Positions 41,323-58,542 of a stretch of 64,000 bases of DNA are shown here, piece by piece. The position numbers and the translations under genes are program-made. Within the stretch, counting starts at the first letter, position 1. Each line of letters starts with the position of its first letter. This DNA comes from Candidatus Amphirhobacter sp. Lineage in GTDB: Bacteria > Pseudomonadota > Gammaproteobacteria > Tethybacterales > Tethybacteraceae. The notes under the pieces are model-generated. The model was given only the letters and a program-made list of their open reading frames with translations, ran no database searches and was not told the origin of the DNA. The stretch covers positions 1,287,134 through 1,351,133 of the forward strand of contig OZ244940.1 of NCBI GenBank assembly GCA_965222035.1, in the 5' to 3' direction.

Positions 41323-44300
41323 ATGGAAGGGCGTTTGATTCGCCATGAAAGGGGGGGGGGTAGCGCCCTTCTAAGCGGCCTGGCGGTTGCGGCCGCCTTG
41401 TTGCTGACGGGCGTGATGATGGCGCCGCAGGCGCATGCTCAGGTGCAGGTTGTCCTAGGAAACCTCCACAAGACAACGGCCGACAAGGTTCTCACTTATC
41501 CCTATGAGGCTGGCCTGACCGGCATCGCTTTCCATGTGACTACATGCGGCGCTCCATCCAACATTGTTCTGCAAACCCGCACCGACGATTTTGACCTGGT
41601 AAGTTATTTCGTCGTACAAGGCCAAATCGGCGTTCGAGAAGGCCGCGGCGACAGCCGAAATGCCGTCGGCCGCGTCCACTACCTGGAGCTAGTTGACGGC
41701 CGGGACAGCCTGCCGGACGGTCCTCTGACCGTTACGGTCAAAGTTTGCAACCAGGCGCCATCGGCCTACACCGTCACGGTGGCGACGTGGTACGACCAGG
41801 GCATGCACAGCGACCGGCCCGCCAGCCGCCACGTCCGAGACATTGCGCCTGGCCAAGACACCGGCATCGCCATTCATCGCAGCGCCAACACGTGTCGCTT
41901 CACCGACGTGCGGCTGGCGGCCGGCGCGCCGGCTTGGCTGGAGCTGCGCCGGCATCGCGCCGACGGCACCGCCGACGGCGACGCCGGGCAGCGTTTGACG
42001 GCGCGGATGGAGAAGGACCATGCCGACGACCGGCATGTGCGCGTGCGCTTCAAGGACGACGCCAGCATGGAGCCGGGCAGCTATGTGTTCTCGATCGTGA
42101 TGGCGCGCACGGCGACCAGCGGCGCGGGATGCACCGCCGCGAGCGCGGCGGCGTACACGCTAGGCTACACCCTCAACATCAGTTTGGGAGCCAGCTGGGA
42201 ACGTCAGGAATCCCTGAACAGCGACAGCGTCACAAGCCACAGTGCGGATGCTTTGGGCGGGCCGTTCGCATTGGCGATGGGCCCGCGCATCCACCGCAGC
42301 TCCTCTTCATGCCGGTGGACGGACGCGAGCCTGGTGGCCGGCGGCTCGTTCTTGGCTATGCAGCGCTACGCCACAACGGGCAACGAAGCGGTTGGCGCGC
42401 CGGCGACCAGCGTGACCGACGTGCGCATGCAGCGCGGCTCTCCGGGCGATCGATATCTCGGCTTGATCTATCGCCGGAATACGCCAGTGCCAGCGGGGAC
42501 GGTGACCGCGGCGGTGGAACTCAAGCCGGCCGCGCGCTGCGCGAATTACGTCGGCATCCCCGGGCCGCTGACGCTGAGCTTCACCGCCACGATCGGCGCG
42601 GCAGCTGCCAACACGGAGCCCTGGATCATCAAGACCGGCTTCGCGAGCTCGGCGCCGACCATCTCGGTCTTCAGCCCGGCCAGCATCCACACGTCCCGCA
42701 CATATAGGGAAATACATACCGGCATCTTCATCGGCCGGCGCACGGCGACTTGCAACGATTATTCCTACAACCTGCTCAATCACCGCGATCTGTTCGAAGT
42801 CGGATACTATCCACTTCACACAGGCTACCAAGACAATATTCAACCCGACGATTCGTTTAGCCGGAATCGCTCCTTCAATTTCGGTGACAACGATGGAGGC
42901 TTCGGCCTGCAGTTCGAGGCCGGCGCGCAGCCGGAGCCGAACACCACCATCACCCTGCATGTGGCGCTGGGCAGGTTTAGATGCGGCAGCCCCGCGCTGA
43001 CCACGCTGTCGTACACCATGACCATTGGCCCGGCGGCGCCCTGGGGAACCTTGGCGAACAATGTCGCGACGGTGACCACGCTGTTCAGGCCCACGCAGCT
43101 GGCGGCCGCCGCGTCGGCGACCGACACCGGCATCCGCTTCAACCGCGGCGTGGCGACGAGCATCTGCACGAACGTGGACGTGGAGCTGGCGAGCGGCAGC
43201 CGCACCCATGTGGAACTGCAGAAGTACAACGGGACGGCGGCCGACGGCGCGGCGGCGGTTTCGTTCGGGGGCCTGACCATGCATGCGGGCGCGACGGGCA
43301 ATCCGGTGGGCCTGCAGTTCAAGGCGGGCGCGTCGGTGCCGGCCGGCGTCCTGACGGTGGCGGTGATCGCCAAGCCCGCCGGCAGCTGCGATCATGCGGA
43401 AGAGCCAATCCCGCTGACGGTGAATTATGAGCTGGTGGTGGGCGAGCGGCAGCCGTGGCAGGTGCACGATCTCGACAGCATGGGACGGGTGGTACTGCTC
43501 GACGGCTTTGCGGCGCAAAGGAGCGCGGCCGACTCCGGCCTGCGGGTGCACCGCAAGCTGAGCGGCTGCAGCTCCATGGATGTGTCGCTGCCAGACGACG
43601 CGCCTGATTGGGCGATGCTGCAGCAGCATGGCCCGAGCGGCCCGGTCGGCGCGCGCGCGCGGACCCAGGCGGCGGTGCCGATGGCGGGCTCGGGCGCGGC
43701 CGGCGACCGGCATGTGCGGCTGATGATCGTGCCGTCGGGGACGCCCCTGCCGGATGCGCGGCTGACGATGGGCGTCGCGGTGGCGGCCAACGCATCATGC
43801 GGGGCCGGCAGCGACATTCCGGCGCCGCAGATGCTGTCGGGCGTGGTGGTGTTTGACACCCAAGGCGTGGGCACGGAGCAGGCGATCCAGGCGGGCGCTT
43901 CGGCGGCGGTACGGGCAATCGGCTTGGAAACCCTGGACGCGGTCATGGCGCGGCCGGACGCCGTGGCCGGATCATGGTCCAGCGAGCTGCTCGGCTTGAT
44001 GCACGCGCACGAGGCCGAGCTCGAGCGCGGCGAGTTCGAGCTGCGGGACCTGGCGGGCGAGGAGTTCGCGCTGGCTTTGTCGAACAGTCCGACCGGCTTG
44101 CCGGCGGGCCTGGCCCTGTGGGGACGTTTCGCTGCCTACGATGTCGGCAATGAGATCGAAGGCGGCGCGCGCTCGGACAATGAATTGTTCAGCGCGAGCT
44201 TCGGCCTCGACTACCGCCTGCGCGCGGGCATGATGCTCGGCCTGGGCTATGGCCACCACGAGATCGACGGCAGCTACGCTGCCAGCTCGGCCAGCGGCAT

Positions 44301-45150
44301 TTACCAGCTGGATCTGGATTTGTACCAGCCGTACGTCGTCGGCTCGATCGGTCCGGGGCTGCTGGCCGCCTTCGCGAGCCAGGGCTCGGGCGACCTGGTG
44401 ATGCACAGCCACGACGGCATCGCGCTGGCGCCGAGCGAGGCCGACTACCAAGGCTGGGGCCTGGGCTGGAGCAGCGCGGTCGAGCGCTGGGACCTGCTGC
44501 TGCGCGCGGGCGCCAGCACGGGCGAGCTCGACGTCGAGGATGAGACTTTGACGCTGGATACCGAAGCGGGCGCGGCGCGCCTGGCGGTGGCCTACGCGCC
44601 GCAGCGGGATTTGATCAACCATCTGCCCTTTCGTGCCGAGCTCGAGGTGGCCTGGGAGGACAACTGGGGCGATGTCGCGACCGACGCGAGCTGGCTGCTG
44701 GGCGCGGCCTTCGAGTACTCCGGCGCCGGGCCCATGCATGCGCGGGCGGCCTACCGCCGGGCGATTGCGGGCGACGGCGACCTGTCCGGCCTGGAGTTCG
44801 ACTTCCAGGTCGATCCGGCCCGCGGCGGCCTGGGTCCGTCCTTCGCCTTGCGCCCGGGCTATGGCTTGGAAACGGGCACTGACTTGTTCGCGCAAGCGGC
44901 GCGGCCGACTTCCTTTACCGCCGGCGCCGACCGCGGCCGGCGCCTGCGCGCCGAGATGGCTTGGGGCCTGCCGGTCAGCGGCGGGGTGCTGACGCCCTAT
45001 GGCGACTGGAGCATGAACGACGCGAGCACGCAGCGCCAACAACTGGGCCTGCGCCTGGGCACCGGCGCCTATGGCGATTGGAACTTGGGCTGGCGCAGCG
45101 CCGACAGCGCCGCTGACGAGCTGCATCTGGAACTGCGCATCGGCGACTAG
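41323..45150 (+). CDS. Paralogous autotransporter-like repeat protein (1275 aa): signal peptide, divergent N-terminal region, ~4 two-cysteine domains and the conserved C-terminal beta-barrel-like domain
   Basis: The start reads M E G R L I R H E R G G G S, a G10 tract, then the signal peptide ALLSGLAVAAALLLTGVMMAPQAHAQ. The C-terminal ~430 aa are homologous to the gene A C-terminus and end ELHLELRIGD. A TAAAAT box lies ~9 nt upstream. Confidence 0.85.
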   Translation: MEGRLIRHERGGGSALLSGLAVAAALLLTGVMMAPQAHAQVQVVLGNLHKTTADKVLTYPYEAGLTGIAFHVTTCGAPSNIVLQTRTDDFDLVSYFVVQGQIGVREGRGDSRNAVGRVHYLELVDGRDSLPDGPLTVTVKVCNQAPSAYTVTVATWYDQGMHSDRPASRHVRDIAPGQDTGIAIHRSANTCRFTDVRLAAGAPAWLELRRHRADGTADGDAGQRLTARMEKDHADDRHVRVRFKDDASMEPGSYVFSIVMARTATSGAGCTAASAAAYTLGYTLNISLGASWERQESLNSDSVTSHSADALGGPFALAMGPRIHRSSSSCRWTDASLVAGGSFLAMQRYATTGNEAVGAPATSVTDVRMQRGSPGDRYLGLIYRRNTPVPAGTVTAAVELKPAARCANYVGIPGPLTLSFTATIGAAAANTEPWIIKTGFASSAPTISVFSPASIHTSRTYREIHTGIFIGRRTATCNDYSYNLLNHRDLFEVGYYPLHTGYQDNIQPDDSFSRNRSFNFGDNDGGFGLQFEAGAQPEPNTTITLHVALGRFRCGSPALTTLSYTMTIGPAAPWGTLANNVATVTTLFRPTQLAAAASATDTGIRFNRGVATSICTNVDVELASGSRTHVELQKYNGTAADGAAAVSFGGLTMHAGATGNPVGLQFKAGASVPAGVLTVAVIAKPAGSCDHAEEPIPLTVNYELVVGERQPWQVHDLDSMGRVVLLDGFAAQRSAADSGLRVHRKLSGCSSMDVSLPDDAPDWAMLQQHGPSGPVGARARTQAAVPMAGSGAAGDRHVRLMIVPSGTPLPDARLTMGVAVAANASCGAGSDIPAPQMLSGVVVFDTQGVGTEQAIQAGASAAVRAIGLETLDAVMARPDAVAGSWSSELLGLMHAHEAELERGEFELRDLAGEEFALALSNSPTGLPAGLALWGRFAAYDVGNEIEGGARSDNELFSASFGLDYRLRAGMMLGLGYGHHEIDGSYAASSASGIYQLDLDLYQPYVVGSIGPGLLAAFASQGSGDLVMHSHDGIALAPSEADYQGWGLGWSSAVERWDLLLRAGASTGELDVEDETLTLDTEAGAARLAVAYAPQRDLINHLPFRAELEVAWEDNWGDVATDASWLLGAAFEYSGAGPMHARAAYRRAIAGDGDLSGLEFDFQVDPARGGLGPSFALRPGYGLETGTDLFAQAARPTSFTAGADRGRRLRAEMAWGLPVSGGVLTPYGDWSMNDASTQRQQLGLRLGTGAYGDWNLGWRSADSAADELHLELRIGD
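41351..41360 (+). repeat. Poly-G (G10) tract in the 5' coding region of paralog B, currently in frame
   Basis: The context gaaaGGGGGGGGGGtagcg matches the motif in the other paralogs. Confidence 0.7.
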
Positions 45151-45205
45151 CAAGCGGCAGCGAGCGGGTTGCCTGCGTCGTTCTCAAGAGGTTAAGTAGT
45201 ATTTA

Positions 45206-45243
45206 GTGGCAGACAATCTGCCGCTGCAAGATAGCGGTTTGAG
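45206..45243. terminator. Conserved hairpin (ggcaga-caa-tctgcc) plus second small hairpin and T-run between the convergent paralog B and AAA ATPase genes; a candidate bidirectional terminator
   Basis: A 6-bp stem with a 3-nt loop is followed by gcggtttg. The same element recurs at 56159-56195 in the second module. Confidence 0.4.
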
Positions 45244-45305
45244 CTAAACAGGCTTACGATGACTTGGCCGAGCTTCTCGGCCTGCGCAACATCGATTCTG
45301 CTCCT

Positions 45306-46463
45306 TCAATTTTTCTTGCGCTTGCGCCGGGCTTTGAAGTATTGGAAGAAGGAGGGGATGGCAGCCCGTACCTTAGCGTCGTTCGTAAACCATACCAAGC
45401 TGTTGTCTAGCAGCAGATTGAAAATCTTGCGCGCCTCTTCGGAACTCATGCCATCATTGGTGGCCGCCAGCTCCGCGGCAACCTCTTCGGGCGGCAATGG
45501 CGGATCCTCATCTTCCACGATAGCCACTACCTGGCTGGCGTAGTCCAATGCGTCTGCGTCTGCGATCTTCTCGTAAACGCTGTGATAGTAAATTTGGCGC
45601 TCCTTCTGCATGGCGGCCTCGGCGCCCTGCGCCAGGGCCAGGTCGACTTCATTGCGCTTGGCTTTCCGCATGGCCTTCCACACTTCCCTGCCCGCCAGCT
45701 GGATGAAGTAAGGATAGTTGTCAGTCCAGCCCGCCATCAAATCAAGCGCCTCGTCCGCCACCTTCACGCCATTGTCCAGCAGCGGCTTGCTCAGTGCTTC
45801 GCGCACCGCCTCGTCGCTGAGCTGATGGATGTATATCGATTGGCAGCGATTGATGAAGGAGGCGTCGGCCTGGTGCAATCTCCCGTCGAGCGCTGGAGTA
45901 CCGGCTATCATCACCGCCAAAGGCCGCTTTAGCATGAGCATCTGCTGGCACGCCTGCAGCAAGTCCCCGAGGGACGTAACATCGTAGTGCATCGCCTCGT
46001 CCAGCAGCAGCAGCACGGGTTTCCTGCGCAGCAGCTGCTGCAACACTCGCGCAATCGTCCGCTTCTCGTAATGCTTCCGCCGCGCGGTAAAGATGGACAG
46101 GCTAAACTGGTAGAAAGCGTTCAGCCACAGCAATGCGTGCTCGCGGATGTCCATGCCATCAAGCAAGCCGTTGATGATGTCGCTGTCCGGGTTCAAGTTG
46201 CGCAGCCTGGCGATGTTAACCACGTGGATGCCTTGTTGCCGCGCTTCGACGCCAGCCACACCTAGCAGCGTCGTTTTGCCCGCCCCGCGCGGGCCGACAA
46301 TCTTGATGGGCGTGAGCGGAGAACGCTCCAGGCCGCCGCCGACCAGAGGCTTGGCGATCAAACGCAGGGTCTCGCTGATTATGTCCCGCTGCTCTTCCCG
46401 TCCCGCCAAATGCGGGGGTTCGAGCGCTGTGCCCGGAACAAACGGGTTTTCGACAGACCCCAT
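45306..46463 (-). CDS. AAA+ ATPase (ATPase_2/AAA_16-like; Walker A GPRGAGKT, Walker B LLLLDEAMHY), paralog 1
   Basis: 385 aa. The N-terminus reads ...NPFVPGTALEPPHLAGREEQ...IKIVGPRGAGKTTLL. It is about 85% identical to the ORF at 56256..57416. A TAAAAT box lies 7 nt upstream of the ATG on the minus strand. Confidence 0.8.
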   Translation of the reverse strand: MGSVENPFVPGTALEPPHLAGREEQRDIISETLRLIAKPLVGGGLERSPLTPIKIVGPRGAGKTTLLGVAGVEARQQGIHVVNIARLRNLNPDSDIINGLLDGMDIREHALLWLNAFYQFSLSIFTARRKHYEKRTIARVLQQLLRRKPVLLLLDEAMHYDVTSLGDLLQACQQMLMLKRPLAVMIAGTPALDGRLHQADASFINRCQSIYIHQLSDEAVREALSKPLLDNGVKVADEALDLMAGWTDNYPYFIQLAGREVWKAMRKAKRNEVDLALAQGAEAAMQKERQIYYHSVYEKIADADALDYASQVVAIVEDEDPPLPPEEVAAELAATNDGMSSEEARKIFNLLLDNSLVWFTNDAKVRAAIPSFFQYFKARRKRKKN

Positions 46464-46644
46464 GATTTGTATTTTACCCTTGCAAGAGGCGGAAAAAGCA
46501 AAAACAGGGGCTCCATGCTTGGCTTGGAGCGCTGCCAGCCCATCTTGGCCTGGTCCTCAATCAACGTTGCGCTCAGGCAACAACAATGCCGAGCATGCCC
46601 GCCTGCGGACAGGCTCCCTGCCAGGCATGCTTTAAAATCTCCGC

Positions 46645-48432
46645 ATGGCCGGCCTGCGTGCGTCCTTGTCCAAGTTGGTCCGCGCCGCCCTGGCGCTGGC
46701 CGTTGGCGCTATTGCCGCCGGTGCCCATGCGCAGTGGCAGACGCTGACCCAGGACAACATGAACACGGCGTCCTCGCTGGATCTGCTGGCGCTGCAGGCG
46801 GCGGGACCTGCGCCGACGGGCCTGATCGTACACCGCAAGACCAACAGCTGTACGAGCATTGACGTGGAGCTGGCGGCTAACGCGCCGGCGATGTTGCGGC
46901 TGCGGCAGTACCGCGGCGACCAACCCGAGGGCAGTGCGGAGCGCTCGCTGCAGGGCGTGTCGATGACCGGCGTGGAAGCGACGGACCGCCATGTGCGGGT
47001 GATGATCGCCAGCGGCGCTTCCCTGACGGTGGGCGCGACGGTGTTCGCGACCCTGACGGTGAAGGCGAACTCGACCTGCACTGGCTCGCAGCCGGCGGAG
47101 CAGCAGGTGACGGGCCGGGTGGTCGTGACCGGCACCGGCCTGGCGACCCAAGAGGCGGCCCAGGCGAGCAACGCCACCGCGCTGCGGCGCATCGGCACCG
47201 AGACGCTGGATGCCATCATGCTGCGCATGGACGCGGTGGCCGATGCTTCCGCCGCCACTGACCTGCGCGGCTTGGCCGCCATCCAGGCGCGGGATTCGCA
47301 GGAAGGCTTCGACCTGCGCGACCTGGCCGGCCAGGACTTCGTGCTGGGTCTGAACCAGCGCGCCAGCGACGGGCCCTTGAAGGCGGGCAACCTGGCGTTG
47401 TGGGGACGTTTCGGCCTCTATGCCCTGGATGCGGTCACTGACGGCGGCGTCAAGCATGACAGCGACCAGCTCAGCGCGAGCTTCGGCCTCGATTACCGCT
47501 TTCGCGACGACATGCTGCTGGGCTTTGGCTACGGCCACCACGGTTTCGAAGGCGGCTACGCCGGCCATCGCGAGGTCGCGGGCGACTACGTCTTGGATGT
47601 CAACGTGCTGCAGCCGTATGTGGTCGGGCGCTTCGGACCGCCGGGCTGGCTGGCGGCGTACGCCAGCATGGGCAAGGGCGAGATGCGGGTGAGCAACGGC
47701 GACGGCCTGCCGGCTGGCGAGTACGAGGTCGATTACAGCGGCTGGGGCTTCGGCTGGCGGCATGAGCTGCGGCAGGGCCTGCGCCTGCGCGCCGGCGCGA
47801 GCGGCGGCGAGCTGGACGCGGAGGATGGCGAGTTGTACCTGGATGTGGCGGCTGGCGCCGCGCAGCTGGCGGTCGGCTATGCGGTTAGGGCCGAGCTGAT
47901 CAAAGGCGCTGAGCTGCATCCGGTGATTGAGGTCGCCTGGGTGGATAAGTGGGGCGACGCGGCCACCGAGGCCACCTGGCTGTTCGCGGCCGCATTCGAG
48001 TATGCTGGCGAGGGTCCGATGCATATCCGGGCGGGCTATCGCCGGGCGATGGCCGGCGATGCCCTGTCCGGCGCTGAGATCGACGCGCGGATCGCGCCCG
48101 CTCGCGGCGGCCTGGGTCCGTCCCTGGCGCTGCGGCCCAGCTACGGCCTGCCGCGGGGGGATGAGTTGCTGCCTGATGCATCCGTCCTGTCCTTGCCGTC
48201 AGCTGCCGGGTACCGCGGCGTACGTCTGGACGCTGAGTTCGTCTGGGGCCTGCCAGTCAACGGCGGGGTCGCCACGCCGTACAGCGAATGGAGCTTGGAT
48301 GCGGATCAGGGCCATGCGGGTGGCCTGGGCTTGCGCTTGGGTACCGGCGCGTATGGCGATTGGGATTTGGGCTGGCGCCGCACAGTTAGCGCCACCGACG
48401 AGCTGCATCTGGAATTGCGCATCGGCGACTAG
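46645..48432 (+). CDS. Minimal family member (595 aa): canonical signal peptide, one two-cysteine domain and the C-terminal beta-barrel-like domain
   Basis: It starts MAGLRASLSKLVRAALALAVGAIAAGAHAQ with no homopolymer tract, followed by TGLIVHRKTNSCTSIDVELAANAPAMLRLRQY...DRHVRVMIASG...NSTC. The C-terminus is homologous to the other paralogs (...LWGRFGLY...LSASFGLDYRFRDDMLLGFGYG...ELHLELRIGD). A TAAAAT box lies 9 nt upstream. Confidence 0.85.
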   Translation: MAGLRASLSKLVRAALALAVGAIAAGAHAQWQTLTQDNMNTASSLDLLALQAAGPAPTGLIVHRKTNSCTSIDVELAANAPAMLRLRQYRGDQPEGSAERSLQGVSMTGVEATDRHVRVMIASGASLTVGATVFATLTVKANSTCTGSQPAEQQVTGRVVVTGTGLATQEAAQASNATALRRIGTETLDAIMLRMDAVADASAATDLRGLAAIQARDSQEGFDLRDLAGQDFVLGLNQRASDGPLKAGNLALWGRFGLYALDAVTDGGVKHDSDQLSASFGLDYRFRDDMLLGFGYGHHGFEGGYAGHREVAGDYVLDVNVLQPYVVGRFGPPGWLAAYASMGKGEMRVSNGDGLPAGEYEVDYSGWGFGWRHELRQGLRLRAGASGGELDAEDGELYLDVAAGAAQLAVGYAVRAELIKGAELHPVIEVAWVDKWGDAATEATWLFAAAFEYAGEGPMHIRAGYRRAMAGDALSGAEIDARIAPARGGLGPSLALRPSYGLPRGDELLPDASVLSLPSAAGYRGVRLDAEFVWGLPVNGGVATPYSEWSLDADQGHAGGLGLRLGTGAYGDWDLGWRRTVSATDELHLELRIGD

Positions 48433-48512
48433 GATTGGCCGGCGGGCTCCGGCTTCGGCGGTTTCCTGTATTGTAAAATGGCTTGAGATGGCCGCAGGAT
48501 TCTTGGATGAAA

Positions 48513-48521
48513 GGGGGGGGG
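48513..48521 (+). repeat. Poly-G (G9) tract; the length puts the upstream ATG and signal peptide out of frame in paralog D
   Basis: The context gatgaaagGGGGGGGGGtagcggccctctag matches E (G10) but has one G fewer. Confidence 0.8.
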
Positions 48522-48570
48522 TAGCGGCCCTCTAGGGCGTTGGCGCCCAGCCCTGGCGGCGCTGGCTTGC

Positions 48571-51500: not shown

Positions 51501-52269
51501 GGGCACGGGCAATCTGCTGCTGGAGGCCCAGGGCAATCTTACTTACCAGCCCCATCTCAAGGCCGATTATGTTGGCTGGGGCCTGGGCTGGTACAACGAC
51601 ATCGAGCGCTGGGACCTGCGCCTGCGCGCCGGGGCCAGCTCCGGCGAGCTCGAATTCGAGGAGGATCGCTTTGAGATGAACGCCGCAGCGGGCACCGCGC
51701 GCCTGGCGGTGGCCTATGCGCCGGGCCGCAACCTGGTCGTCGACATCCCGATGCAGCCGGAGTTCGAAGTGGCCTGGGCCGATGAATGGGGCGACGCCGC
51801 CGGCGATCCGAGCTGGCTGGTGGCGCTGGTGTTCGACTACGCCGGCACCGGTCCGATGCATCTGCGCGCCGCCTACCGTCATGCGGTCAGCGGCGGCGGC
51901 GACCTCGCCGGAGTGGAGCTGGACCTCCGCGTCGATCCGAACCGCGGCGGCTTAGGCCCCTCTTTCGCTCTGCGCCCGCATTACGGCATCGAAGCGGGAG
52001 AGGATTTGTTCGCACAAGCGGCGCGGCCGACCACCTTCGCCGCGGGCGCCGACCGCGGCCGGCGCCTGCAGGCCGAGATGGCCTGGGGCTTGCCAGTCAG
52101 CGGCGGGGTACTTACGCCCTATGGCGACTGGAGCATGGAGCGGCGGGATCGCAGCCGGCAGCTGGGCCTGCGCTTGGGTACCGGCGTCTACGGCGATTGG
52201 AACTTGGGCTGGCGCCGCGCGGGCCGCGCCGCGGACGAGCTGCATCTGGAATTGCGCATCGGCGACTAG
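48571..52269 (+). CDS. Paralog D (1232 aa from the internal ATG); by comparison with paralog E the native start is the ATG at 48488, which is currently out of frame because the poly-G tract is G9, consistent with a phase-OFF state
   Basis: With G9, the ATG at 48488 reads MAAGFLDERGGVAAL and stops at 48533-48535. The main frame is open only from the stop at 48508, and the first ATG (48571) leaves a truncated signal peptide, MLACAFAAEAQQ. One extra G would fuse them: MAAGFLDERGGGSGPLGRWRPALAALACMLACAFAAEA-QQ. The rest is about 80% identical to paralog E. Confidence 0.75.
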   Translation: MLACAFAAEAQQLGNQHSATADGIVNLPYDSGKSTGIRFHVTSCTTGGRFRNGLYLRNDDFVYPEFIFYNTNGSFSHRSDAISNLFFGRIAHFAVLSVATTEGVRRPEFKICNHDQLAYPVTVAIWEDQGQDDETPASSYFNVRSAAAGVDTDIAFHRSGSTCRYNDVQLVNPPSWLELRKYTASGTPDGAAGTRFTVRMEKDHAEDRQVRLLFKEGVTVATGQHVATMAVARHLASAGCSGGLDTTVTLTYTLNITDQAEWAAQGPEEVRDARALRTDALGAALNLTIHRSSEICRYTSVSLAGDAGSFLELRAYATATGRQAGAAAASLPGVFMQRGAAGDLNVRVYSKSGAAAPQPGRKDVTIVVQPGARCGFQQGLPAAQSIAIAWNVLAPYGSPEPWQAGSIDDATSDGPFSPRAVSEATDPVPVGIYLQRNSASCVNMYYELLSGQEALDFHFVAQNSRIRQEGDVIGLKASGNRSAGLYFEPGTQLESGAKLPVSIQLRAYPTCSQGPATQTIAFTLTMGAAEAWRVLAGEVAAATALFQPASLRASTSPTDTGVRFHRGTSACPQVDVAVRPTAFVEVRKYNGSAADGAAAPSLANVRMQAGHADDRLVGLQFKAGVTLPPGLLTATLVAKAASDCTHANAPQPLTLAYELAVQDAWPWRAAAQDNFGAPALIDTLELQRSGARSTGLRLQRNSRACASTDVALASDAPAYLSLRRYSATGPEGAAARSLSGVNMSGSGTNDRHVRIAIAGGTSLTIGAAVAVSLTISANSSCSGAVGVPAAQELVGYVLVSGGGLDTEAAMQAGTALAVRALGIETLGAVMARPGAASDTSTSAQLLGMLAAKEKELESGEIDLRTFLAGQRFSLPLSSSASGLPSGLMLWGRAAAYEVGSESENGAQVESDLFSGSFGVDYRFTEGMLLGLGYGRHGQKGQYRNGGAAGSYQLDLNLYQPYAAARIGPGWLVAYGSQGTGNLLLEAQGNLTYQPHLKADYVGWGLGWYNDIERWDLRLRAGASSGELEFEEDRFEMNAAAGTARLAVAYAPGRNLVVDIPMQPEFEVAWADEWGDAAGDPSWLVALVFDYAGTGPMHLRAAYRHAVSGGGDLAGVELDLRVDPNRGGLGPSFALRPHYGIEAGEDLFAQAARPTTFAAGADRGRRLQAEMAWGLPVSGGVLTPYGDWSMERRDRSRQLGLRLGTGVYGDWNLGWRRAGRAADELHLELRIGD

Positions 52270-52324
52270 GGTTGGCCGGCGGGCTCCGGCTCCGGCGGTT
52301 TCCTGTATTGTAAAATGGCTTGGA

Positions 52325-55300
52325 ATGGCCGCAGGATTTTTTGATGAAAGGGGGGGGGGTAGCGGTCCTCTAGGGCATTGCCGCTCAATCCTGGCGGCGC
52401 TAACTTGCATGCTGGCTTTGCCCTTCGCCGCCGAGGCGCAGCAACTAGGCAACCAGCATAGCGCGACGGCCGATCGCATCGTCAACCTGCCGTATGACAG
52501 CGGCAAGAGCACTGGCATCAAGTTCCACATCACCAGCTGCACCACCGGCGGTGGTTTTAGTTCCAGGATTTATCAACGCAACAACGATTTCATTACTCAC
52601 CTTTTTCTTGACTACAGCACGGACGGCAGTTATCTAGGCAGCACAAATTCAAGCAGTTACCCCTTCAGCAATAGTGTACTGCATTTTGCTGTCGTAAGTG
52701 TTGCCACCACGGAAGGAGTGCGACGCCCGGAAATAAAGATATGCAATCATGCGGACATGGCCTACGCCGTTACGGTGGCGAAGTGGGAGGACCAGGGCCA
52801 GGCTGACGACACGCCGGAGAGCAGGTACTATCACGTGCGCGGCGCAGCGGCCGGCGTCGACACCGGCATCGCCTTCCACCGCAGCGGCTCGACCTGCCGC
52901 TACAATGATGTTCAATTGGTCAATCCGCCCTCCTGGCTGGAGCTGCGCAAGTACACGGCCAGCGGGACGCCGGACGGTGCCGCCGGCATGCGCTTCACGG
53001 TGCGGATGGAGAAGGATCATGCGGAGGATCGCCAGGTGCGGCTGCTGTTCAAGGAAGGGGTGACGGTTGCGGTGGGCCAGCACATGGCGACCATGGCGGT
53101 AGCGCGCCATTTAGCGTCGGCCGGATGCAGCGGGGGCCTGGACACGACGGTGACGCTCGTGCACACGCTCAACATCACCGACCAGGCCGACTGGACGGCG
53201 CAGGGCGGGGAAAACGCCATCGAGCCTTACGACATTCGCTCCGACGCTCTCGGCGCGGCGGGGGTGGGCCTGGGCCTGACGCTTCACCGCAGCTCGGAAG
53301 TCTGCCGGTACACGTCGGTGTCGTTGGCGGGCGACGCAAGCTCTTTCTTGGAGCTGCGCACCTACTCGACGGCGACGCGGCGGCTGGTCGGTACGCCGGC
53401 CGCGAGCCTGCCGGGCGTGTTCATGCAGCGCGGCGTGGCGGGCGACCGCAACGTGCAGGTGTTCTCCAAGAGTGGCGCGTCGGTGACGCCGGGGACCAAG
53501 GCGGTGACGATCGCGGTCCAGCCCGGTGCCCGCTGCGGTTTTCAGCAGGGCTTGCCGTCGGCACAGACCTTGGCGTTGCAGTGGACGGTGCTCTCGCCCT
53601 TCAGCTCGCCCGAGGCCTGGCAATTAGGCAGCGGCGATGACGCGGTACCGGACGGGCCGTTCAGCCCGCGGGCGGTGTCGGAGTCCTCTGATCCGGTGCC
53701 CGTCGGGGTGTACCTGCATCGTACTTCAGCGTCCTGTAGTTTCATCCATCATGAGATTCTAAGCGGCCATGAAGCGCTCGATATATATCTTGTGAATCCT
53801 GGCCGTACCAGCCGCACCTGGCGGGGCGATTTAGCAGCAATAAATATCAACTTCAACTCGGCCGCCCTGTATTTCGAGCCGGGCGTGCAGCTGGCGTCCG
53901 GCAGCGAGCTGCCCGTGTCAATCCAAATTCGCCCTGATGCGACATGCAACGCGGGCGCGGCCGTCCAGACCCTGGCGTTCACCTTGACGATGGGCACGGC
54001 GGAGGCGTGGCGCGCCCTGGCCGGCGATGTCGCGACGGCGACGATGCTGTTCCAGCCGGCGAGCCTGCGCGTGTCGACCTCGCCGACGGACACCGGCGTG
54101 CGCTTCCATCGCGGCACCTCGGCCTGTCCGCAGGTGGATGTGGCGGTGGGCCCGACGGCGTTCATGGAACTGCGCAAGTACAATGGCGGTACCGCGGACG
54201 GCGCGGCGGCAGTGTCTCTGGCCGACGTGCGCATGCAGGCGAGCCATGCCGACGACCGGCGGGTGGGGGTGCAGTTCAAGGCGGGCGTCACGCTGCCGCC
54301 GGGCTTGTTCACGGCGACCGTGGTGGCCAAGGCGGCCTCAGGCTGCGCGCATGGCAACGCGCCGGTGCCCTTGACCTTGGCTTATGAATTGGCGGTGCTG
54401 GACGCCTGGCCGTGGCGGACAGCGGCGCAGGACAATTTCGGCACGCCAGCGCAGCTGGACAGGCTGGAGCTCGAGGGTTCCGGCGCGCTGCCGACTGGAT
54501 TGCGCGTGCAGCGCAATTCGCGGGCCTGCGCGAGTACCGATGTGGCGCTGGCATCCGACGCGCCGTCATATCTGTCGCTGCGGCGCTACAGCGCCACCGG
54601 TCCCGACGGCGCGGCGGCGCGGTCGCTGGCGGGCGTGAACATGACCGGCTCCGGCGCGGCCGACCGCCATGTGCGGGTGATGATCGCGGGTGGGACGGCG
54701 CTTGATGTCGGCGCCGCGGTCACGGTTTCGCTGACGGTATCCGCCAACGCATCCTGCTCGGGCGCGGCGGGCGTACCGGCGGCGCAGGAGCTGGTGGGCT
54801 ACGTGCTCGTCAGCGGCGGCGGGCTGCTGGCGGAGGCGGCCATGCAGGCGGGCACTGCCTTGGCGGTGCGGGCGCTGGGCATCGAGACGCTGGGCGCGGT
54901 CATGGCGCGTCCCGGCGCGCCATCAGGAGCGGCGGCCAGCGAGCAGCTGCTCGGCATGCTGGCGGCGAAGGAAGCGGAGCTCGAGAGCGGCGCGATCGAC
55001 TTGCGCGAGTTCCTCGCCGGCCAGAGTTTCGCGCTGCCGCTGGCGTCCGCCGACGGCGGCCTGCCGCCAGGCTTGATGATGTGGGGCCGGGCGGCGGCAT
55101 ATGACGTGGGCGCGGCGGTCGAGAACGGTCCGCGGGTGGACAGCGATCTGTTCAGCGGCAGCTTCGGCGTCGACTATCGTTTTCGCGAGGGCATGCTGCT
55201 GGGGCTGGGCTTTGGCCGGCACGAGCTGTCGGGTCGTTACAGCAATCGGGGTTCCACCGGCAGCTATCAACTGGATTTGAATCTGTACCAGCCTTATGCC

Positions 55301-56113
55301 GCGGCGCAGCTCGGCCCGGGCTGGCTGGCGGCCTACGGCAGCCAGGGCACGGGCGACTTGCTGCTCGAGATCCAGGATGGCGTGGACCGCAAGCCCAGCC
55401 TCAAGGCCGACTACACCGGCTGGGGCCTGGGCTGGTACAACGACATCGAGCGCTGGGACCTGCGCCTGCGGGCCGGCGCGAGCGCCGGCGAGCTGGAGTT
55501 CGAGGAGAATCGCCTTGAGCTGAATACCGAAGCGGGCACGGCGCGCCTGGCGGTGGCCTATGCGCCGGGCCGCGACCTGGTCGTCGACATCCCGATCCAG
55601 CCGGAGGTGGAGATCGCCTGGGCCGATGAATGGGGCGACGCCGCCGGCGACTCAAGCTGGCTGCTGGCGCTGGCCTTCGACTACGCCGGCGACGGTCCGC
55701 TGCAGCTGCGCACCACCTACCGCCGCGCAGTCAGCGGCGGCGGCGACCATGCCGGGGCCGAGCTGGACGTCCGCGTCGATGCCGGCCGCGGTGGCTTGGG
55801 CCCCTCCTTCGCTTTGCGCCCGCATTACGGCATTGAAGGGGGAGCGGATTTGTTCGCGCAGGTGGCGCAGCCGACCACCTTCGCCGCAGGCGACGACCGC
55901 GGCCGTCGCCTGCAAGCTGAGATGGCCTGGGGCCTGCCGGTCAACGGCGGGGTGCTGGTGCCGTACGGTGGCTGGAGCATGGAACGACGCGATCACAGCC
56001 GGCGGCTGGGACTGCGCCTGGACAGCGGCGCCTACGGCGACTGGAACCTGGGCTGGCGCAGCGCCGACAGCAGTATCGACGAGCTGCATCTGGAACTGCG
56101 CATCGGCGACTAA
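52325..56113 (+). CDS. Paralog E (about 1262 aa): signal peptide after an in-frame G10 tract, ~4 two-cysteine domains and the C-terminal beta-barrel-like domain
   Basis: The ATG at 52325 reads MAAGFFDERGGGSGPLGHCRSILAALTCMLALPFAAEAQQLGNQHSATADRIV.... The listed ORF 52121..56113 only extends upstream because there is no stop in the frame. The C-terminus ends ELHLELRIGD. Confidence 0.85.
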   Translation: MAAGFFDERGGGSGPLGHCRSILAALTCMLALPFAAEAQQLGNQHSATADRIVNLPYDSGKSTGIKFHITSCTTGGGFSSRIYQRNNDFITHLFLDYSTDGSYLGSTNSSSYPFSNSVLHFAVVSVATTEGVRRPEIKICNHADMAYAVTVAKWEDQGQADDTPESRYYHVRGAAAGVDTGIAFHRSGSTCRYNDVQLVNPPSWLELRKYTASGTPDGAAGMRFTVRMEKDHAEDRQVRLLFKEGVTVAVGQHMATMAVARHLASAGCSGGLDTTVTLVHTLNITDQADWTAQGGENAIEPYDIRSDALGAAGVGLGLTLHRSSEVCRYTSVSLAGDASSFLELRTYSTATRRLVGTPAASLPGVFMQRGVAGDRNVQVFSKSGASVTPGTKAVTIAVQPGARCGFQQGLPSAQTLALQWTVLSPFSSPEAWQLGSGDDAVPDGPFSPRAVSESSDPVPVGVYLHRTSASCSFIHHEILSGHEALDIYLVNPGRTSRTWRGDLAAININFNSAALYFEPGVQLASGSELPVSIQIRPDATCNAGAAVQTLAFTLTMGTAEAWRALAGDVATATMLFQPASLRVSTSPTDTGVRFHRGTSACPQVDVAVGPTAFMELRKYNGGTADGAAAVSLADVRMQASHADDRRVGVQFKAGVTLPPGLFTATVVAKAASGCAHGNAPVPLTLAYELAVLDAWPWRTAAQDNFGTPAQLDRLELEGSGALPTGLRVQRNSRACASTDVALASDAPSYLSLRRYSATGPDGAAARSLAGVNMTGSGAADRHVRVMIAGGTALDVGAAVTVSLTVSANASCSGAAGVPAAQELVGYVLVSGGGLLAEAAMQAGTALAVRALGIETLGAVMARPGAPSGAAASEQLLGMLAAKEAELESGAIDLREFLAGQSFALPLASADGGLPPGLMMWGRAAAYDVGAAVENGPRVDSDLFSGSFGVDYRFREGMLLGLGFGRHELSGRYSNRGSTGSYQLDLNLYQPYAAAQLGPGWLAAYGSQGTGDLLLEIQDGVDRKPSLKADYTGWGLGWYNDIERWDLRLRAGASAGELEFEENRLELNTEAGTARLAVAYAPGRDLVVDIPIQPEVEIAWADEWGDAAGDSSWLLALAFDYAGDGPLQLRTTYRRAVSGGGDHAGAELDVRVDAGRGGLGPSFALRPHYGIEGGADLFAQVAQPTTFAAGDDRGRRLQAEMAWGLPVNGGVLVPYGGWSMERRDHSRRLGLRLDSGAYGDWNLGWRSADSSIDELHLELRIGD
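52350..52359 (+). repeat. Poly-G (G10) tract in the 5' coding region of paralog E, in frame (ON configuration)
   Basis: ttttttgatgaaagGGGGGGGGGGtagcggtcct. Confidence 0.8.
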
Positions 56114-56158
56114 AGTCGGCGCGCGGATTGCCCGCGCCGTTCTCAAGGGAAGTCTTAG

Positions 56159-56195
56159 TGGCAGATAGTCTGCCGCGGCAAAGATAGCGGTTTAA
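56159..56195. terminator. Second copy of the conserved hairpin (ggcaga-tag-tctgcc plus gcggttt) between the convergent paralog E and AAA ATPase 2
   Basis: Same structure and position as 45206-45243. Confidence 0.4.
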
Positions 56196-56255
56196 TCAAA
56201 ACAGGCATGCAGTGCCCAACGAAATTTATGGCTTGCGCAGTTCAGCCCTGCTTCT

Positions 56256-57416
56256 TCAATCCTTGTTTTCCTCTTGCCGGGCCTTGAAATATTGGAAGAA
56301 GGATGGGATGGCAGGTTGCACCTTGGCGTCATCCGCAAACCATATCAAGCTGTTGTCCAGCAACAGATTGAAAATCTTGCGCGCCTCTTGGGAACTCATG
56401 CCATTATTGGCGGCTGCGAGCTTCTCCATTACTTTTTCAGATGTGAACGGCGAATCCGCGCCTTCCACGATGGCCACGACCTGGTTGGCGTAGCCCAACG
56501 CGTCTGCGTCTGCGATCTTCTCGTAAACGCTGTGGTAGTAAATGCGGCGCTCCTTCTGCATGGCAGCCTCGGCGCCCTGCGCCAGGGCCAGGTCGACTTC
56601 ATTGCGCTTGGCTTTCCGCATGGCTTTCCACACTTCCCTGCCCGCCAGCTGGACGAAGTAAGGATAGTTGTCAGTCCAGCTCGCCATCAAATCGAGCGCC
56701 TCGTCCGCCACCTTCACGCCATTGTCCAGCAGTGGCTTGCGCAGGGCGTCGCGCACCGCCTCGTCGCTGAGTTGGTGGATGTACATCGATTGGCAGCGAT
56801 TGATGAAGGAAGCATTGGCCTGATTCAGCTTTCCATCGAGAGCGGGCGTACCGGCTATCATCACCGCCAAAGGCCGCTTCTGCTTGATCATCTGCTGACA
56901 CGCCTGCAGTAGTCTGCCAAAGGACTTGGCATTATAGTGCATCGCCTCATCTAGCGACAACAGTACGGGATGCCGGCTCAGCCGGGCTCGCAGCACTCTC
57001 TTGATCGTCTGCTGCTCGTAATGCTTCCGCTTCGCGGAAAAAATGGACAGGCCAAGCTGGTAGAAACCGCTCAGCCACAGCAGGGACCGCTCGCGGAGGT
57101 CCATGCCCTCCAGCAAGCCGCTGATGATTTCGCTGCTCGGATCCAAGCGAAGCAGTTCGGCACTGTCAACCACATGGATGCCCTGTCGCCGCGCCTCTGC
57201 TTCAGCCAGGCCCAGCAGGGATGTCTTGCCCGCCCCCCGCGGGCCGACGATCTTGATGGGCGTGAGCGGAGAACGCTCCAGCCTGCCGTCGACCAGGGGT
57301 TTGGTGATTATACGCAGGGTCTCGCTGATTATGTCCCGCTGCTCTTCCCGCCCCGCCAAATGCGGGGGCTCGGTGGCAGTGCCCGGAACAAACGGGTTTT
57401 CGACAGACCCCATGGT
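56256..57416 (-). CDS. AAA+ ATPase paralog 2 (Walker A GPRGAGKT, Walker B LLSLDEAMHY)
   Basis: 386 aa from the ATG complementary to 57414-57416 (MGSVENPFVPGTATEPPHLAGREEQ...), which is the homologous start to paralog 1. The listed ORF extends a further 43 codons upstream but without homology. Confidence 0.8.
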   Translation of the reverse strand, partial: TMGSVENPFVPGTATEPPHLAGREEQRDIISETLRIITKPLVDGRLERSPLTPIKIVGPRGAGKTSLLGLAEAEARRQGIHVVDSAELLRLDPSSEIISGLLEGMDLRERSLLWLSGFYQLGLSIFSAKRKHYEQQTIKRVLRARLSRHPVLLSLDEAMHYNAKSFGRLLQACQQMIKQKRPLAVMIAGTPALDGKLNQANASFINRCQSMYIHQLSDEAVRDALRKPLLDNGVKVADEALDLMASWTDNYPYFVQLAGREVWKAMRKAKRNEVDLALAQGAEAAMQKERRIYYHSVYEKIADADALGYANQVVAIVEGADSPFTSEKVMEKLAAANNGMSSQEARKIFNLLLDNSLIWFADDAKVQPAIPSFFQYFKARQEENKD

Positions 57417-57550
57417 TTGTATTTTACCTTCGCAAGGGGCGAGAAACATAAAAACAGGGGTTGCATGCTCATGCAAGCCATCGCATGCAAGATGGTAGCA
57501 TTGAGGATCAGCCGCCACCGCAGGCATTTCCGCATAAAATAACATTTGCC

Positions 57551-57943
57551 ATGACCAAGCGGATGCGCTTCCTGCCCCTTTTGCTGCTGCCGCTACTGCT
57601 GCAGGGATGCGGTGGCTTCCTCACCGAGATGAAATGCCGCAATGGCCCGCTGCAGCAGGAGGTGTCGTCGCTGTGGGAGCGCATCGTCGAGCTGCGCGGC
57701 AACGCCAGGCGGGGCTACGCTCTCCATGTACAGTACGTCTCCGAGCAGGAGCCGTACACCGACAAGGACGACCAGGGCCGCGAGGTGACGCGGTACCGCA
57801 GAGTGGAGCGGCGGGTCGAGACGCCGGTGTCGATCGACGTCGAGGCCCAGCGGGCGCAGGCCGAGGCCCTGGCACGCAGCGCCGGCCGGATCGAGGACGC
57901 GGCCGAGCAAGAGTACCTCAAGTGCCTCGCCGCCAACAGCTGA
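57551..57943 (+). CDS. Small lipoprotein (130 aa), paralog 1
   Basis: MTKRMRFLPLLLLPLLLQGCGG contains the lipobox LLQGC. About 60% identical to 58144..58542 (GPLQQE..S...R..ELRGN..RGYALH.QYV.E.EPYTD.D..GR.VTR.R.V.RRVETPV.ID...QRAQAE.L.RS..RI.DAA.QEYLKC). A TAAAAT box lies 10 nt upstream. Confidence 0.7.
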   Translation: MTKRMRFLPLLLLPLLLQGCGGFLTEMKCRNGPLQQEVSSLWERIVELRGNARRGYALHVQYVSEQEPYTDKDDQGREVTRYRRVERRVETPVSIDVEAQRAQAEALARSAGRIEDAAEQEYLKCLAANS

Positions 57944-57956
57944 CGGATCGCGCTCG

Positions 57957-58109
57957 ATCCCTTGGCGACGCTTGACCGCAAGAGTTAGCGCGGCAGGCGC
58001 TGCTACTGCTGGAGCGACATGCCGCCTGAGCACCGGCGCCTATGGCGACACTGGAAACTTGGCTGGTGCTGCCGACGAGTTGCTTCTGGAAATGCGCATC
58101 GGCGACTAG
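57957..58109 (+). pseudogene. Mosaic remnant: a decayed duplicate of the 5' end of the DUF2723 gene (57957-58028), fused to a degraded 3' end of an autotransporter-family gene (58029-58109, encoding ...GTGAYGDTGNLAGAADELLLEMRIGD*)
   Basis: 57944-58028 aligns with 58543-58625 (cgctcgat.c.ttggcg.cgcttgaccgcaag..ttagcgcggcaggcgctgc..ctgctggagcg) but carries a 2-nt insertion that breaks the frame. 58029-58109 aligns with the last ~30 codons of the paralog genes (ggcgcctatggcga...gagctgcatctggaactgcgcatcggcgactag) with internal deletions. It is followed by a cctgtgtaaaat promoter-like box like the one upstream of genes D and E. Confidence 0.65.
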
Positions 58110-58143: not shown

Positions 58144-58542
58144 ATGATCAAGAAGATATGCTGCTGGTTGCTGCTTCCGTTGCCTGTCCTTCTGCAGGGC
58201 TGCGGCGGCGGCGGCGGTGTCGTCACCGAGAGAGATTGTCGTAGTGGCCCGCTGCAGCAGGAACTGACATCGATGCAGAGGCGTGTCAACGAGTTGCGCG
58301 GCAATGTGACGCGAGGCTATGCTCTCCACATCCAGTACGTCGAGGAGAATGAGCCGTACACCGATAGGGATCTCGACGGCCGCCAGGTGACGCGCTTTCG
58401 CAAGGTGCAGCGGCGGGTTGAGACGCCAGTTGCGATCGATATTGATAGCCAACGGGCGCAGGCCGAGGTTTTAGAGCGGAGCGTGGACCGGATCGCGGAT
58501 GCGGCCCACCAAGAGTACCTCAAGTGCCGCGCCGGCAACTGA
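58144..58542 (+). CDS. Small lipoprotein (132 aa), paralog 2
   Basis: MIKKICCWLLLPLPVLLQGCGGGGG contains the lipobox LLQGC. It is preceded by tgtaaaatatcatacggctATG. Confidence 0.7.
   Translation: MIKKICCWLLLPLPVLLQGCGGGGGVVTERDCRSGPLQQELTSMQRRVNELRGNVTRGYALHIQYVEENEPYTDRDLDGRQVTRFRKVQRRVETPVAIDIDSQRAQAEVLERSVDRIADAAHQEYLKCRAGN

Follow-up and report, generated by a model that had tools for sequence, protein, structure and literature searches.

Archaeal genes for AAA+ ATPases of the ATPase_2 type (PF01637) tend to be present as many paralogs per genome. Structures have been solved for this large ATPase_2-like class and, to our knowledge, no function has been assigned to it. A second precedent comes from prophage-like islands of E. 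coli, in which the flu/Ag43 autotransporter gene is followed by a gene for a P-loop NTPase (yeeP-type), in a repeated arrangement. Type Va secretion is not known to require a dedicated ATPase.

We analyzed a 64,000-nt stretch (hereafter the window) of a 1,855,096-bp contig (1.86 Mb) from a sponge-symbiont-like bacterium, Candidatus Amphirhobacter sp., in which a cluster of surface-protein genes appears to have been expanded by recombination, with an ATPase gene carried along twice. The ATPase is a member of a large, fast-shuffling family that is often, although not always, found beside switchable giant surface-protein genes. The features of the locus, in window positions, are the following:

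19533-41258, plus strand: family gene A, a predicted giant divergent autotransporter of 7241 aa, found by profile search (P0146)
19571-19588: A9G9 tract of gene A, in frame
41323-45150, plus strand: family gene B, 1275 aa, with signal-peptide-like N-terminus and C-terminal beta-domain
41351-41360: G10 tract of gene B, in frame
45151-45305, no strand: spacer between the convergent B and ATPase1 genes, with a GC-rich hairpin at about 45157-45182 just past the stop codon
45208-45222: core of the conserved hairpin GTGGCAGAC-AAT-CTGCCGC in the B/ATPase1 spacer
45306-46463, minus strand: ATPase1, 385 aa from MGSVENPF, matching AAA_22
46464-46519, minus strand: conserved ATPase1 5' region TTGCAAGGGTAAAATACAAATC-ATG, with TAAAAT at 46471-46476
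46645-48432, plus strand: family gene C, 595 aa, lacking a poly-G tract
48490-52269, plus strand: family gene D, ATG at 48490, open reading frame resuming at 48571
48513-48521: G9 tract of gene D, frame-breaking
52325-56113, plus strand: family gene E, 1262 aa when read from 52325, where the conserved ATG lies, and not from the start of the open reading frame at 52121
52350-52359: G10 tract of gene E, in frame
56114-56255, no strand: E/ATPase2 spacer, with hairpin CGGCGCG..CGCGCCG at 56117-56139
56160-56174: core of the conserved hairpin in the E/ATPase2 spacer
56256-57413, minus strand: ATPase2, 385 aa from MGSVENPF, identical to P0010; its open reading frame extends to 57545, the conserved start being 57413
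57414-57469, minus strand: conserved ATPase2 5' region, with TAAAAT at 57421-57426
57551-57943 and 58144-58542, plus strand: duplicated small lipoprotein genes, ~77% identical
about 58026-58109: remnant of a family-gene 3' end, ~85 bp, between the two lipoprotein genes

The five family genes counted in the original prediction were all recovered, as open reading frames on the plus strand that share a C-terminal ending of the form ...L(H/R)L(E/Q)LRIGD. Their sequences point to divergent members of the classical (type Va) autotransporters, and poly-G tracts lie close to the 5' ends. A profile search with the C-terminal domain of ~430 aa retrieved 550 matches, nearly all lying at the C-terminus or a few residues from it; PF03797 scored above cutoff in 8 of 10 distant matches tested, and members of the domain family in AqS2, a distinct sponge symbiont of a different genus, carry the name "Autotransporter domain-containing protein". 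Searching B, C and D against Pfam and NCBIfam returned no family at E<=0.1, PF03797 included, and word-indexed protein searches with the C-terminal domain returned only the gene C orthologs, which are 91-96% identical across the C-terminal 430 aa. The gene A ortholog in the related genome L016 encodes only 2337 aa, with a C-terminal domain that is 89% identical. By eye, the N-termini of the family proteins are signal-peptide-like, and the AF2 prediction for the beta-domain shows long beta-strands preceded by a long helix, at a pLDDT of only 46 and with no confidently modeled barrel.

Every family gene except C has a run of G9 or G10, and runs of G8 to G10 occur in the orthologs, with lengths differing among both paralogs and orthologs. 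Gene D, with G9, is out of frame while its sister E, with G10, is in frame; the broken frame of D means either that the gene is phase-OFF or that a sequencing error is present. A homopolymer in the 5' coding region that varies in length between copies and sets the reading frame is what slipped-strand variation predicts. Together with the divergent autotransporter beta-domain, these tracts make the original description of the family as phase-variable surface proteins a sound one.

Both B and E run into the same two-hairpin spacer, as originally reported, with one GC-rich hairpin immediately 3' of each stop codon and the conserved hairpin following it. The palindrome of the latter, GGCAGA-N3-TCTGCC, has exactly two perfect matches in the window (the two spacer copies) and three matches in total when one mismatch is allowed, compared with 0.33 expected. 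Its fold z-scores (-1.0 to -2.1) are not clearly better than those of shuffled sequences. We considered a role as rho-independent terminator and rejected it, as a consensus scan gave no match at 45208-45222 or 56160-56174; a known RNA was likewise rejected, an Rfam scan being negative, and a tRNA scan was negative as well. On the opposite side of each ATPase gene, a TAAAAT box is located 7 nt before the ATG. The box itself was thus correctly noted, but it is not a promoter special to the ATPases: the window contains 13 TAAAAT hexamers, of which 9 precede an ATG start, and the arrangement TAAAAT-N6-11-ATG is general in this genome. The genome appears to have a leaderless promoter style.

The two ATPases lie on the strand opposite to the family genes and share the Walker A motif GPRGAGKT and the Walker B motif DEAMHY. 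Their DNA is ~84% identical (77-96% per 150-nt window), slightly below the 85% first given, and their proteins 79%. Both match AAA_22 (PF13401) at 35.7 and 36.5 bits, above the 27-bit gathering threshold, while their ATPase_2 (PF01637) scores of 24.2 and 15.0 bits fall under the 33.2-bit threshold. Nine positions are invariant in 20 homologs (G57, R59, G60, G62, K63, T64, D155, T189 and R221); as far as sequence can tell, the motifs of a catalytically competent AAA+ protein (Walker A, Walker B, sensor-1 and arginine) are conserved. No signal peptide is present, pointing to a cytoplasmic location. The AF2 model (pLDDT 85) divides into three domains, namely AAA+ core, lid and C-terminal winged helix; a variable insert of helices separates the two Walker motifs. 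In fold comparison the archaeal ATPase_2 proteins are nearest, followed by ORC/Cdc6 and NB-ARC, with classic unfoldases far lower. The model therefore predicts an initiator/STAND-like AAA+ protein with a winged helix, and not one of the unfoldase or secretion type. Other searches yielded little: the PDB sequence search gave P-loop-level matches only, the BFVD fold search generic RFC/AAA+ matches only (TM ~0.4), JGI metagenomes no matches, and the AqS2/Tethybacterales literature that we searched no description of these ATPases or autotransporters.

At least 13 ATPase paralogs are encoded on the source contig. All copies are intact, with dN/dS values of 0.26-0.75, all below 1, and we therefore rejected decaying pseudogenes. 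The copies are mosaics, shaped by frequent gene conversion. Nucleotides 301-450 of ATPase1 are 98-99% identical to the ATPase behind gene B in L015 and to a copy among housekeeping genes in L010, and only 59% identical to the positional ortholog in L013; similarly, nucleotides 151-600 of ATPase2 are 93-95% identical to the ATPase behind gene B in L019. The ATPase gene forms an island of divergence amid flanks that are 93-96% identical, and its variable segments do not follow the identity of the neighboring family gene. Its composition is also distinct (GC 59-60%, GC3 75-77%, versus GC 68% and GC3 82-87% in the family genes and GC3 92-94% in housekeeping genes). Among GTDB representative genomes, ATPase matches were found only in AqS2 and in distant MAGs. 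Related ATPases are expanded in apparently unrelated marine host-associated MAGs, with tandem triplets in an acidobacterial MAG.

Aligning the two blocks with blastn revealed homology between 43003-46519 and 53969-57469 at 74.7%, which ceases ~55 bp upstream of the ATPase start, at 46519 and 57469. The proposed duplication as a unit was borne out insofar as a B-like 3' end, spacer, ATPase and promoter are all present twice; the mosaic ATPases, however, do not form a clean duplicate pair. Over the last 150-300 nt, the 3' ends of B and E are 82-85% identical, compared with 65-72% for A-E and C-E, and B is equally close to D and E (82-87%). Over the last 600-1290 nt, in turn, no pair is closer than D and E (83-85%), and the same holds for the C-terminal domain (79% aa identity), E being the tandem sister of D. 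This pattern fits one duplication of a B-like block followed by a tandem duplication giving D and E. Downstream, D has a spacer of the C type and E one of the B type. Since gene conversion blurs the identities, the order of these duplications is one that we infer from them. The lipoprotein pair, with the family-gene remnant between its members, is the scar of an earlier segmental duplication.

Our preferred reading, which we place at a probability of about 0.5, is that this is a phase-variable autotransporter array built by recombination, in which the ATPase is a linked passenger that acts as an independent DNA-binding switch. Homologous recombination within the conserved 3' ends encoding the beta-domain would have generated a segmental duplication and with it the second ATPase copy. 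The duplicated unit would have comprised a B-like gene, the spacer with its two hairpins and, in convergent orientation, the ATPase gene together with its short promoter, and the B-like copy would then have been duplicated in tandem into D and E, the ATPase riding along as a tightly linked passenger. The ATPase itself is most likely a DNA-binding switch that oligomerises and depends on nucleotide, in a task that would be independent of autotransporter secretion and most plausibly regulatory, or related to genome conflict and defence. The similar, dispersed ATPase copies and the conserved 3' ends of the family may provide the homology through which these loci are continually reshuffled.

The genomic contexts in relatives show how far linkage extends. 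In L013 and L019 the order is B, convergent ATPase, C, lipoprotein, TMEM260-like and TopA, and L015 has a second ATPase straight after C in addition. The cassette of spacer and ATPase thus follows B in three other genomes, and in a fourth (L016) it follows the ortholog of A; comparison of filled and empty sites shows it to occupy precisely the interval from the family stop codon to the promoter of the lipoprotein gene. In L010 and L016, a subfamily-2 ATPase lies co-directionally behind a divergent family gene, and in AqS2 an ATPase is convergent to a family array, two genes away. Altogether, 7 of ~11 position classes have the ATPase at, or within ~4 kb of, the 3' end of a family array, the classes being the contexts that we read, which for the source genome are those of the two window copies. 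The co-localisation of ATPase and autotransporter genes, including that in AqS2, is too frequent for chance, and it exceeds what a single hitch-hiking event easily explains, leaving room for a functional link. At the same time, some copies are flanked by housekeeping genes and lack a family gene within 10 kb, others are parted from a family gene by several housekeeping genes, and family genes without an ATPase also occur in related genomes. The ATPase can therefore not be called dedicated to the surface proteins, as originally suggested: it has at least 13 paralogs, and each family exists without the other, which goes part of the way towards what was to indicate a coincidental duplication, yet the two co-localise beyond chance.

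It is possible, although we consider it the less likely account by some way, that selection and not just linkage holds the ATPase at the 3' end because it acts on the DNA of the neighboring array, either as an ATP-dependent transcriptional switch or as a factor promoting or limiting recombination and phase variation of the array. The pairing is seen in more than one lineage and in several configurations (convergent at B, at the A ortholog and at E or C, co-directional in L010 and L016, and in AqS2), two further "housekeeping" cases have family genes 3.5 kb away, and by a rough estimate the expectation from chance is ~1% of the genome per position. The predicted winged helix and initiator-like fold suggest DNA binding, for which the conserved spacer palindrome would be a candidate site. 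That palindrome, however, is restricted to one spacer lineage, and convergent orientation with separate promoters is unusual for a regulator or partner. Many ATPase copies have no family gene nearby and the reverse also holds, and the codon composition of the ATPase is unlike that of the family genes. Moreover, the B-side ATPases of close relatives have at least 3 types of variable segment, one of them in common with a housekeeping-context copy, and therefore display no partner-specific co-variation. A broader version of this idea, which we regard as doubtful, is that sponge-symbiont lineages, here the AqS2-like (Tethybacterales-type) clade, maintain a recombining family of AAA+ winged-helix proteins of ORC/STAND-like type whose function is bound up with the phase-variable autotransporter arrays. 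The ATPase might then determine, at the level of DNA, which giant surface protein is expressed or recombined, or might be a new conflict or immunity module that guards these loci, with swappable segments giving specificity.

We find it improbable that the cassette of spacer, gene and promoter is a selfish or mobile unit, intact or as a remnant, that inserts or spreads into neutral positions, for instance terminators and the 3' ends of genes, and for which the non-essential surface-protein arrays are simply tolerant landing sites. The precisely filled site, the low GC of the ATPase, the scatter of copies among housekeeping genes with a conserved ~25-bp 5' region in common, and the distant relatives that occur as stand-alone genes on plasmids and viral contigs are all consistent with mobility. 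But neither a transposase or integrase nor terminal inverted repeats nor a clear duplication of the target site was seen in the contexts read or at the filled site, the housekeeping-context copies have no hairpin spacer and so no definable constant ends, and archaeal ATPase_2 folds outscore the TnsC type by a wide margin. Finally, that the ATPase assists giant autotransporter precursors in the cytoplasm, as chaperone or unfoldase or in their secretion, a partner role that the original prediction had raised, is very improbable: adjacency to very large secreted proteins speaks for it, while the initiator/STAND-like fold with its winged helix argues against it, the ATPase and autotransporter genes do not form an operon, and many ATPase copies are unlinked to any family gene.

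If the linkage reflects hitch-hiking only, as in our preferred reading, the locus is a clear but ordinary case of small symbiont genomes expanding their surface-protein repertoires, with dispersed paralogs and conserved 3' ends as the substrates of recombination. A functional linkage, by contrast, would provide the first biological context for a large ATPase_2-like AAA+ class, and would indicate that phase-variable adhesins of animal symbionts are subject to a further, new level of control.

Compared with known systems, the family proteins resemble classical type Va autotransporters in their signal-peptide-like N-terminus, repetitive passenger, C-terminal domain of ~430 aa and 5' G tract; they differ in ending with ...RIGD instead of an aromatic residue and in having no direct PF03797 match. 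The 385-aa ATPase differs from ORC1/Cdc6 and STAND NTPases (NB-ARC/NLR, Avs) in having neither sensor or effector domains nor an origin context (dnaA of the window is at 1158-2564, away from the ATPase genes), and PADLOC-DB v2 finds no defence-system model for it, the best match being mad8 at E 0.002 and 15.5 bits over the P-loop region only. From the AAA_22 transposition ATPases (TniB/TnsC, MuB, IstB), it is set apart by the lack of a transposase partner at any context read and by a structural similarity lower than that to ATPase_2 or ORC. The E. coli flu/Ag43 islands are alike in that a phase-variable autotransporter and a P-loop NTPase are repeated together as both ride a duplicated block; there, however, the NTPase is a GTPase, and the islands are integrative elements with toxin-antitoxin and antirestriction genes, none of which were seen here. 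The closest likeness is to the archaeal ATPase_2 proteins (Pyrococcus abyssi PABY2304, PDB 2qen; Sulfolobus SSO1545, PDB 2fna), which are of the same size (~350-390 aa), share an (A/V)GRE motif N-terminal to Walker A and, according to the model, the same three-domain layout, and are likewise stand-alone genes of unassigned function. Identity to them is only 13-15%, and the window ATPases differ in belonging to bacterial, sponge-symbiont lineages, in their variable helical insert and in their recurrent linkage to autotransporter arrays.

The window (GC ~67%) opens with dnaA and gyrB and therefore adjoins the chromosomal origin; the origin gene cluster spans 1158-7468, with a probable dnaN between these two genes. 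The window's genes have named relatives in one organism only, the sponge symbiont "Betaproteobacteria bacterium AqS2" / Ca. Amphirhobacter, which tentatively points to an AqS2-like animal symbiont of Tethybacterales type. Within 19.5-57.5 kb lie five paralogous plus-strand genes (A to E) and two minus-strand 385-aa ATPase genes:

Gene A: 19533-41258, plus strand, 7241 aa
Poly-G tract of A: 19571-19588, plus strand, A9G9
Gene B: plus strand, 1275 aa
Poly-G tract of B: 41351-41360, plus strand
ATPase1 gene: 45306-46463, minus strand, 385 aa, convergent with B
Gene C: plus strand, 595 aa
Gene D: plus strand, 1232 aa as ORF
Poly-G tract of D: 48513-48521, plus strand, G9, frame broken
Gene E: from a conserved ATG at 52325 to 56113, plus strand, 1262 aa from that ATG
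Poly-G tract of E: 52350-52359, plus strand, G10, in frame
ATPase2 gene: 56256-57413, minus strand, 385 aa, convergent with E

Mechanically called ORFs exceed the real genes: that of ATPase2 (56256-57545) adds 44 codons ahead of the conserved start (57413), and that of E (52121-56113) begins inside the 3' end of D. The A-E cluster lies 20-57 kb from the origin, entirely on the plus strand (the leading one, provided that the origin is upstream of dnaA). Accessory genes of low GC (56-59%) occupy 7550-10210 and 17522-19150. They comprise a gene for an FRG-domain/TPR protein, one for a Schlafen AlbA_2 / HATPase_c_4 protein, which is divergent from A, and two ORFs that match no family; genes of such kinds are frequent in defence islands.

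The original prediction of a paralog expansion with a duplicated ATPase block was confirmed. The family-gene 3' end, hairpin, ATPase and promoter recur together, with 43003-46519 matching 53969-57469 at 74.7% (blastn). Measured per 100 nt, identity ranges over 60-85% for the family 3' ends, 65-81% for the spacer and 71-96% for the ATPase gene. It collapses ~55 bp upstream of the start codon of the ATPase; the two ATPase proteins are 79% identical. The claim that B and E end in the same structured element also held, as the palindrome GGCAGA-N3-TCTGCC occurs exactly at the two spacers and nowhere else in the window (with one mismatch, 3 matches vs 0.33 expected). A further GC-rich hairpin follows the stop codon of both genes. 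Neither hairpin passed a canonical terminator scan, their fold energies were just 1-2 sd better than those of shuffles, and an Rfam search gave no match.

The leaderless-type promoter attributed to each ATPase is present, as TAAAAT 7 nt before both ATGs, but is not specific to these genes. Of the 13 TAAAAT hexamers in the window, 9 have an ATG 6-11 nt downstream, namely those of A-E, the two ATPases and the two lipoprotein genes (plus strand 19520, 41311, 46633, 48474, 52311, 57535, 58127; minus strand 46476, 57426). This layout is general to the genome and not peculiar to the block. Genes with the TAAAAT-ATG arrangement lack a Shine-Dalgarno sequence, and other genes have TATAAT- or TAGAAT-like boxes at similar distances. 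The pattern suggests that leaderless transcripts may be widespread in this genome, which would be unusual in a proteobacterium.

In related genomes the locus is simpler, comprising B, a convergent ATPase, C, a lipoprotein gene, a TMEM260-like gene and TopA, with an additional ATPase directly behind C at one locus (L015). Comparison of filled and empty sites shows that the cassette (spacer, ATPase gene and promoter) fits exactly into the interval from the family stop codon to the lipoprotein promoter; neither terminal repeats nor a target duplication could be clearly recognised. The C-terminal domains of D and E are 62-63% identical to that of B vs 48-49% to that of C, and their last 150-300 nt are 82-87% identical to those of B; downstream, D has the spacer of C and E that of B. 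At L016, a locus in a related genome, a B/E-type spacer with wobble-preserved stems joins the A ortholog to its ATPase. Behind the cassette, two paralogous small lipoprotein genes (57551-57943 and 58144-58542, ~77% identical) flank a ~85-bp family-gene 3' relic (~58026-58109); this relic retains the ancestral stop-codon-to-promoter junction, which is intact at loci L013 and L019. The simplest account would be that homologous recombination took place repeatedly in the 3' ends, which are conserved and encode the beta-domain; it may have copied a B-like gene and its cassette to a site downstream of C, with the tandem duplication giving D and E probably following afterwards.

No Pfam or NCBIfam model matched the family proteins of the window. 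When a profile built from the C-terminal 450 aa was scored against 1.84 billion representatives, 550 proteins of 179-7241 aa matched (22 at E<=1e-30), almost always at the C-terminus or a few residues from it. PF03797 (Autotransporter beta-domain) scored above its cutoff in 8/10 distant matches tested, and AqS2 members are annotated "Autotransporter domain-containing protein". The AF2 model of the domain, a poor one (pLDDT 46), has a long helix followed by long beta-strands. G8-G10 tracts lie 20-50 nt into the coding regions of A, B, D, E and orthologs (also at L015, L016 and L019); D (G9) is out of frame vs its sister E (G10), and C has no tract. Given the beta-domain homology and the poly-G tracts, the family genes are therefore divergent type Va autotransporters, plausibly phase-variable. 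Gene A contains ~26 near-identical double modules of ~275 aa; its ortholog at L016 (11263-18276) has just 2337 aa, implying that repeat number probably varies widely.

The ATPase scored above the Pfam cutoff for AAA_22 and under those for ATPase_2, AAA_16, nSTAND and ORC-CDC6-like; PADLOC was negative and no signal peptide was found. Walker A, Walker B, sensor and arginine residues and a C-terminal IPSFF motif are invariant in 20 homologs, and the AF2 model (pLDDT 85, pTM 0.84) comprises an AAA+ core, a lid and a helix-helix-helix-strand-strand winged helix. This fold class serves DNA binding or assembly into switches and does not thread polypeptides, which argues against the proposed chaperone or secretion role.

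Nor is the ATPase a dedicated partner of the family genes, as had been supposed. The contig to which exact-match protein records assign the window (1,855,096 bp) holds 13 ATPase cluster representatives, of which 12 have 371-400 aa and one is a fragment of 221 aa. In related genomes, copies sit between dehydrogenase and Hda/ferrochelatase genes (L010), among PBP1a, UvrC, FtsY and PurM genes (three copies, L012), between epimerase and MetRS genes (L018), and between rhodanese and HisD genes (L033, AqS2). Family genes without an ATPase include C at L013 and L019 and the B ortholog at L018. In unrelated MAGs (Acidobacteriota, Gammaproteobacteria, Acidimicrobiia), more remote relatives with 22-28% identity are arranged as tandem pairs or triplets; others stand alone on plasmids and viral contigs. 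A tandem triplet of related ATPases in the acidobacterial MAG Ca. Marinacidobacterium (L006, 4502-8518) lies beside a MazE-like gene, and a tandem pair in AqS2 (L004/L031, 10001-12704) beside an ImmA/IrrE-type M78 peptidase gene.

Occurrence of each family without the other had been named as a sign of coincidental duplication; the two do occur apart, but their linkage is above chance. The ATPase gene abuts the 3' end of B in the window and at L013, L015 and L019, precedes the lipoprotein gene behind E in the window and behind C at L015, and lies behind the A ortholog at L016. At L010 and L016 it is co-directional, behind a divergent family gene. In AqS2, a tandem pair of ATPases is convergent with a two-gene family array and separated from it by just the M78 peptidase gene and a 108-aa gene. 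For two "housekeeping" copies the distance to a family gene is 3.5 kb. Under the rough assumption that ~1% of a 1.9-Mb genome is within such a distance of an array end, even 2-3 independent linkages among ~7 independent positions give p ~0.001-0.005. The linkage is not chance.

The ATPase gene is also an island of divergence: positional orthologs are 65-87% identical vs 91-96% for the neighbouring gene C (C-terminal 430 aa), and the flanks are 93-96% identical. Nearest relatives switch from segment to segment. Nucleotides 301-450 of ATPase1 are 98-99% identical to the copy behind the B ortholog at L015 and to the housekeeping-context copy of L010, but 59% to the copy behind B at L013. ATPase2 is 93-95% identical to the copy behind B at L019 over nucleotides 151-600 and 94% to that at L015 over 901-1050, and synonymous divergence between ATPase1 and ATPase2 falls to 0.08-0.13 in codons 221-300. 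The ATPase family recombines. Every copy is intact (dN/dS 0.26-0.75). GC (59-60%) and GC3 (75-77%) are well under those of family and housekeeping genes, so that the ATPases are like the accessory FRG-TPR and Schlafen/AlbA_2 genes elsewhere in the window.

One-to-one partner recognition by the ATPase is unlikely because its variable segments differ without regard to the family gene next to it. Of the functional link proposed between ATPase and surface protein, the statistical association at array ends stands, but the evidence favours a linked passenger; functional coupling of ATPase and array at the DNA level is a less probable but credible alternative. We give a probability of about one half to the ATPase being a linked passenger whose orphan AAA+/winged-helix family has expanded and recombines. 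A literature search found no description of these ATPase or autotransporter genes. Both parts belong to kinds already known, the surface-protein genes to autotransporter arrays and the ATPases to the ATPase_2-like orphans.
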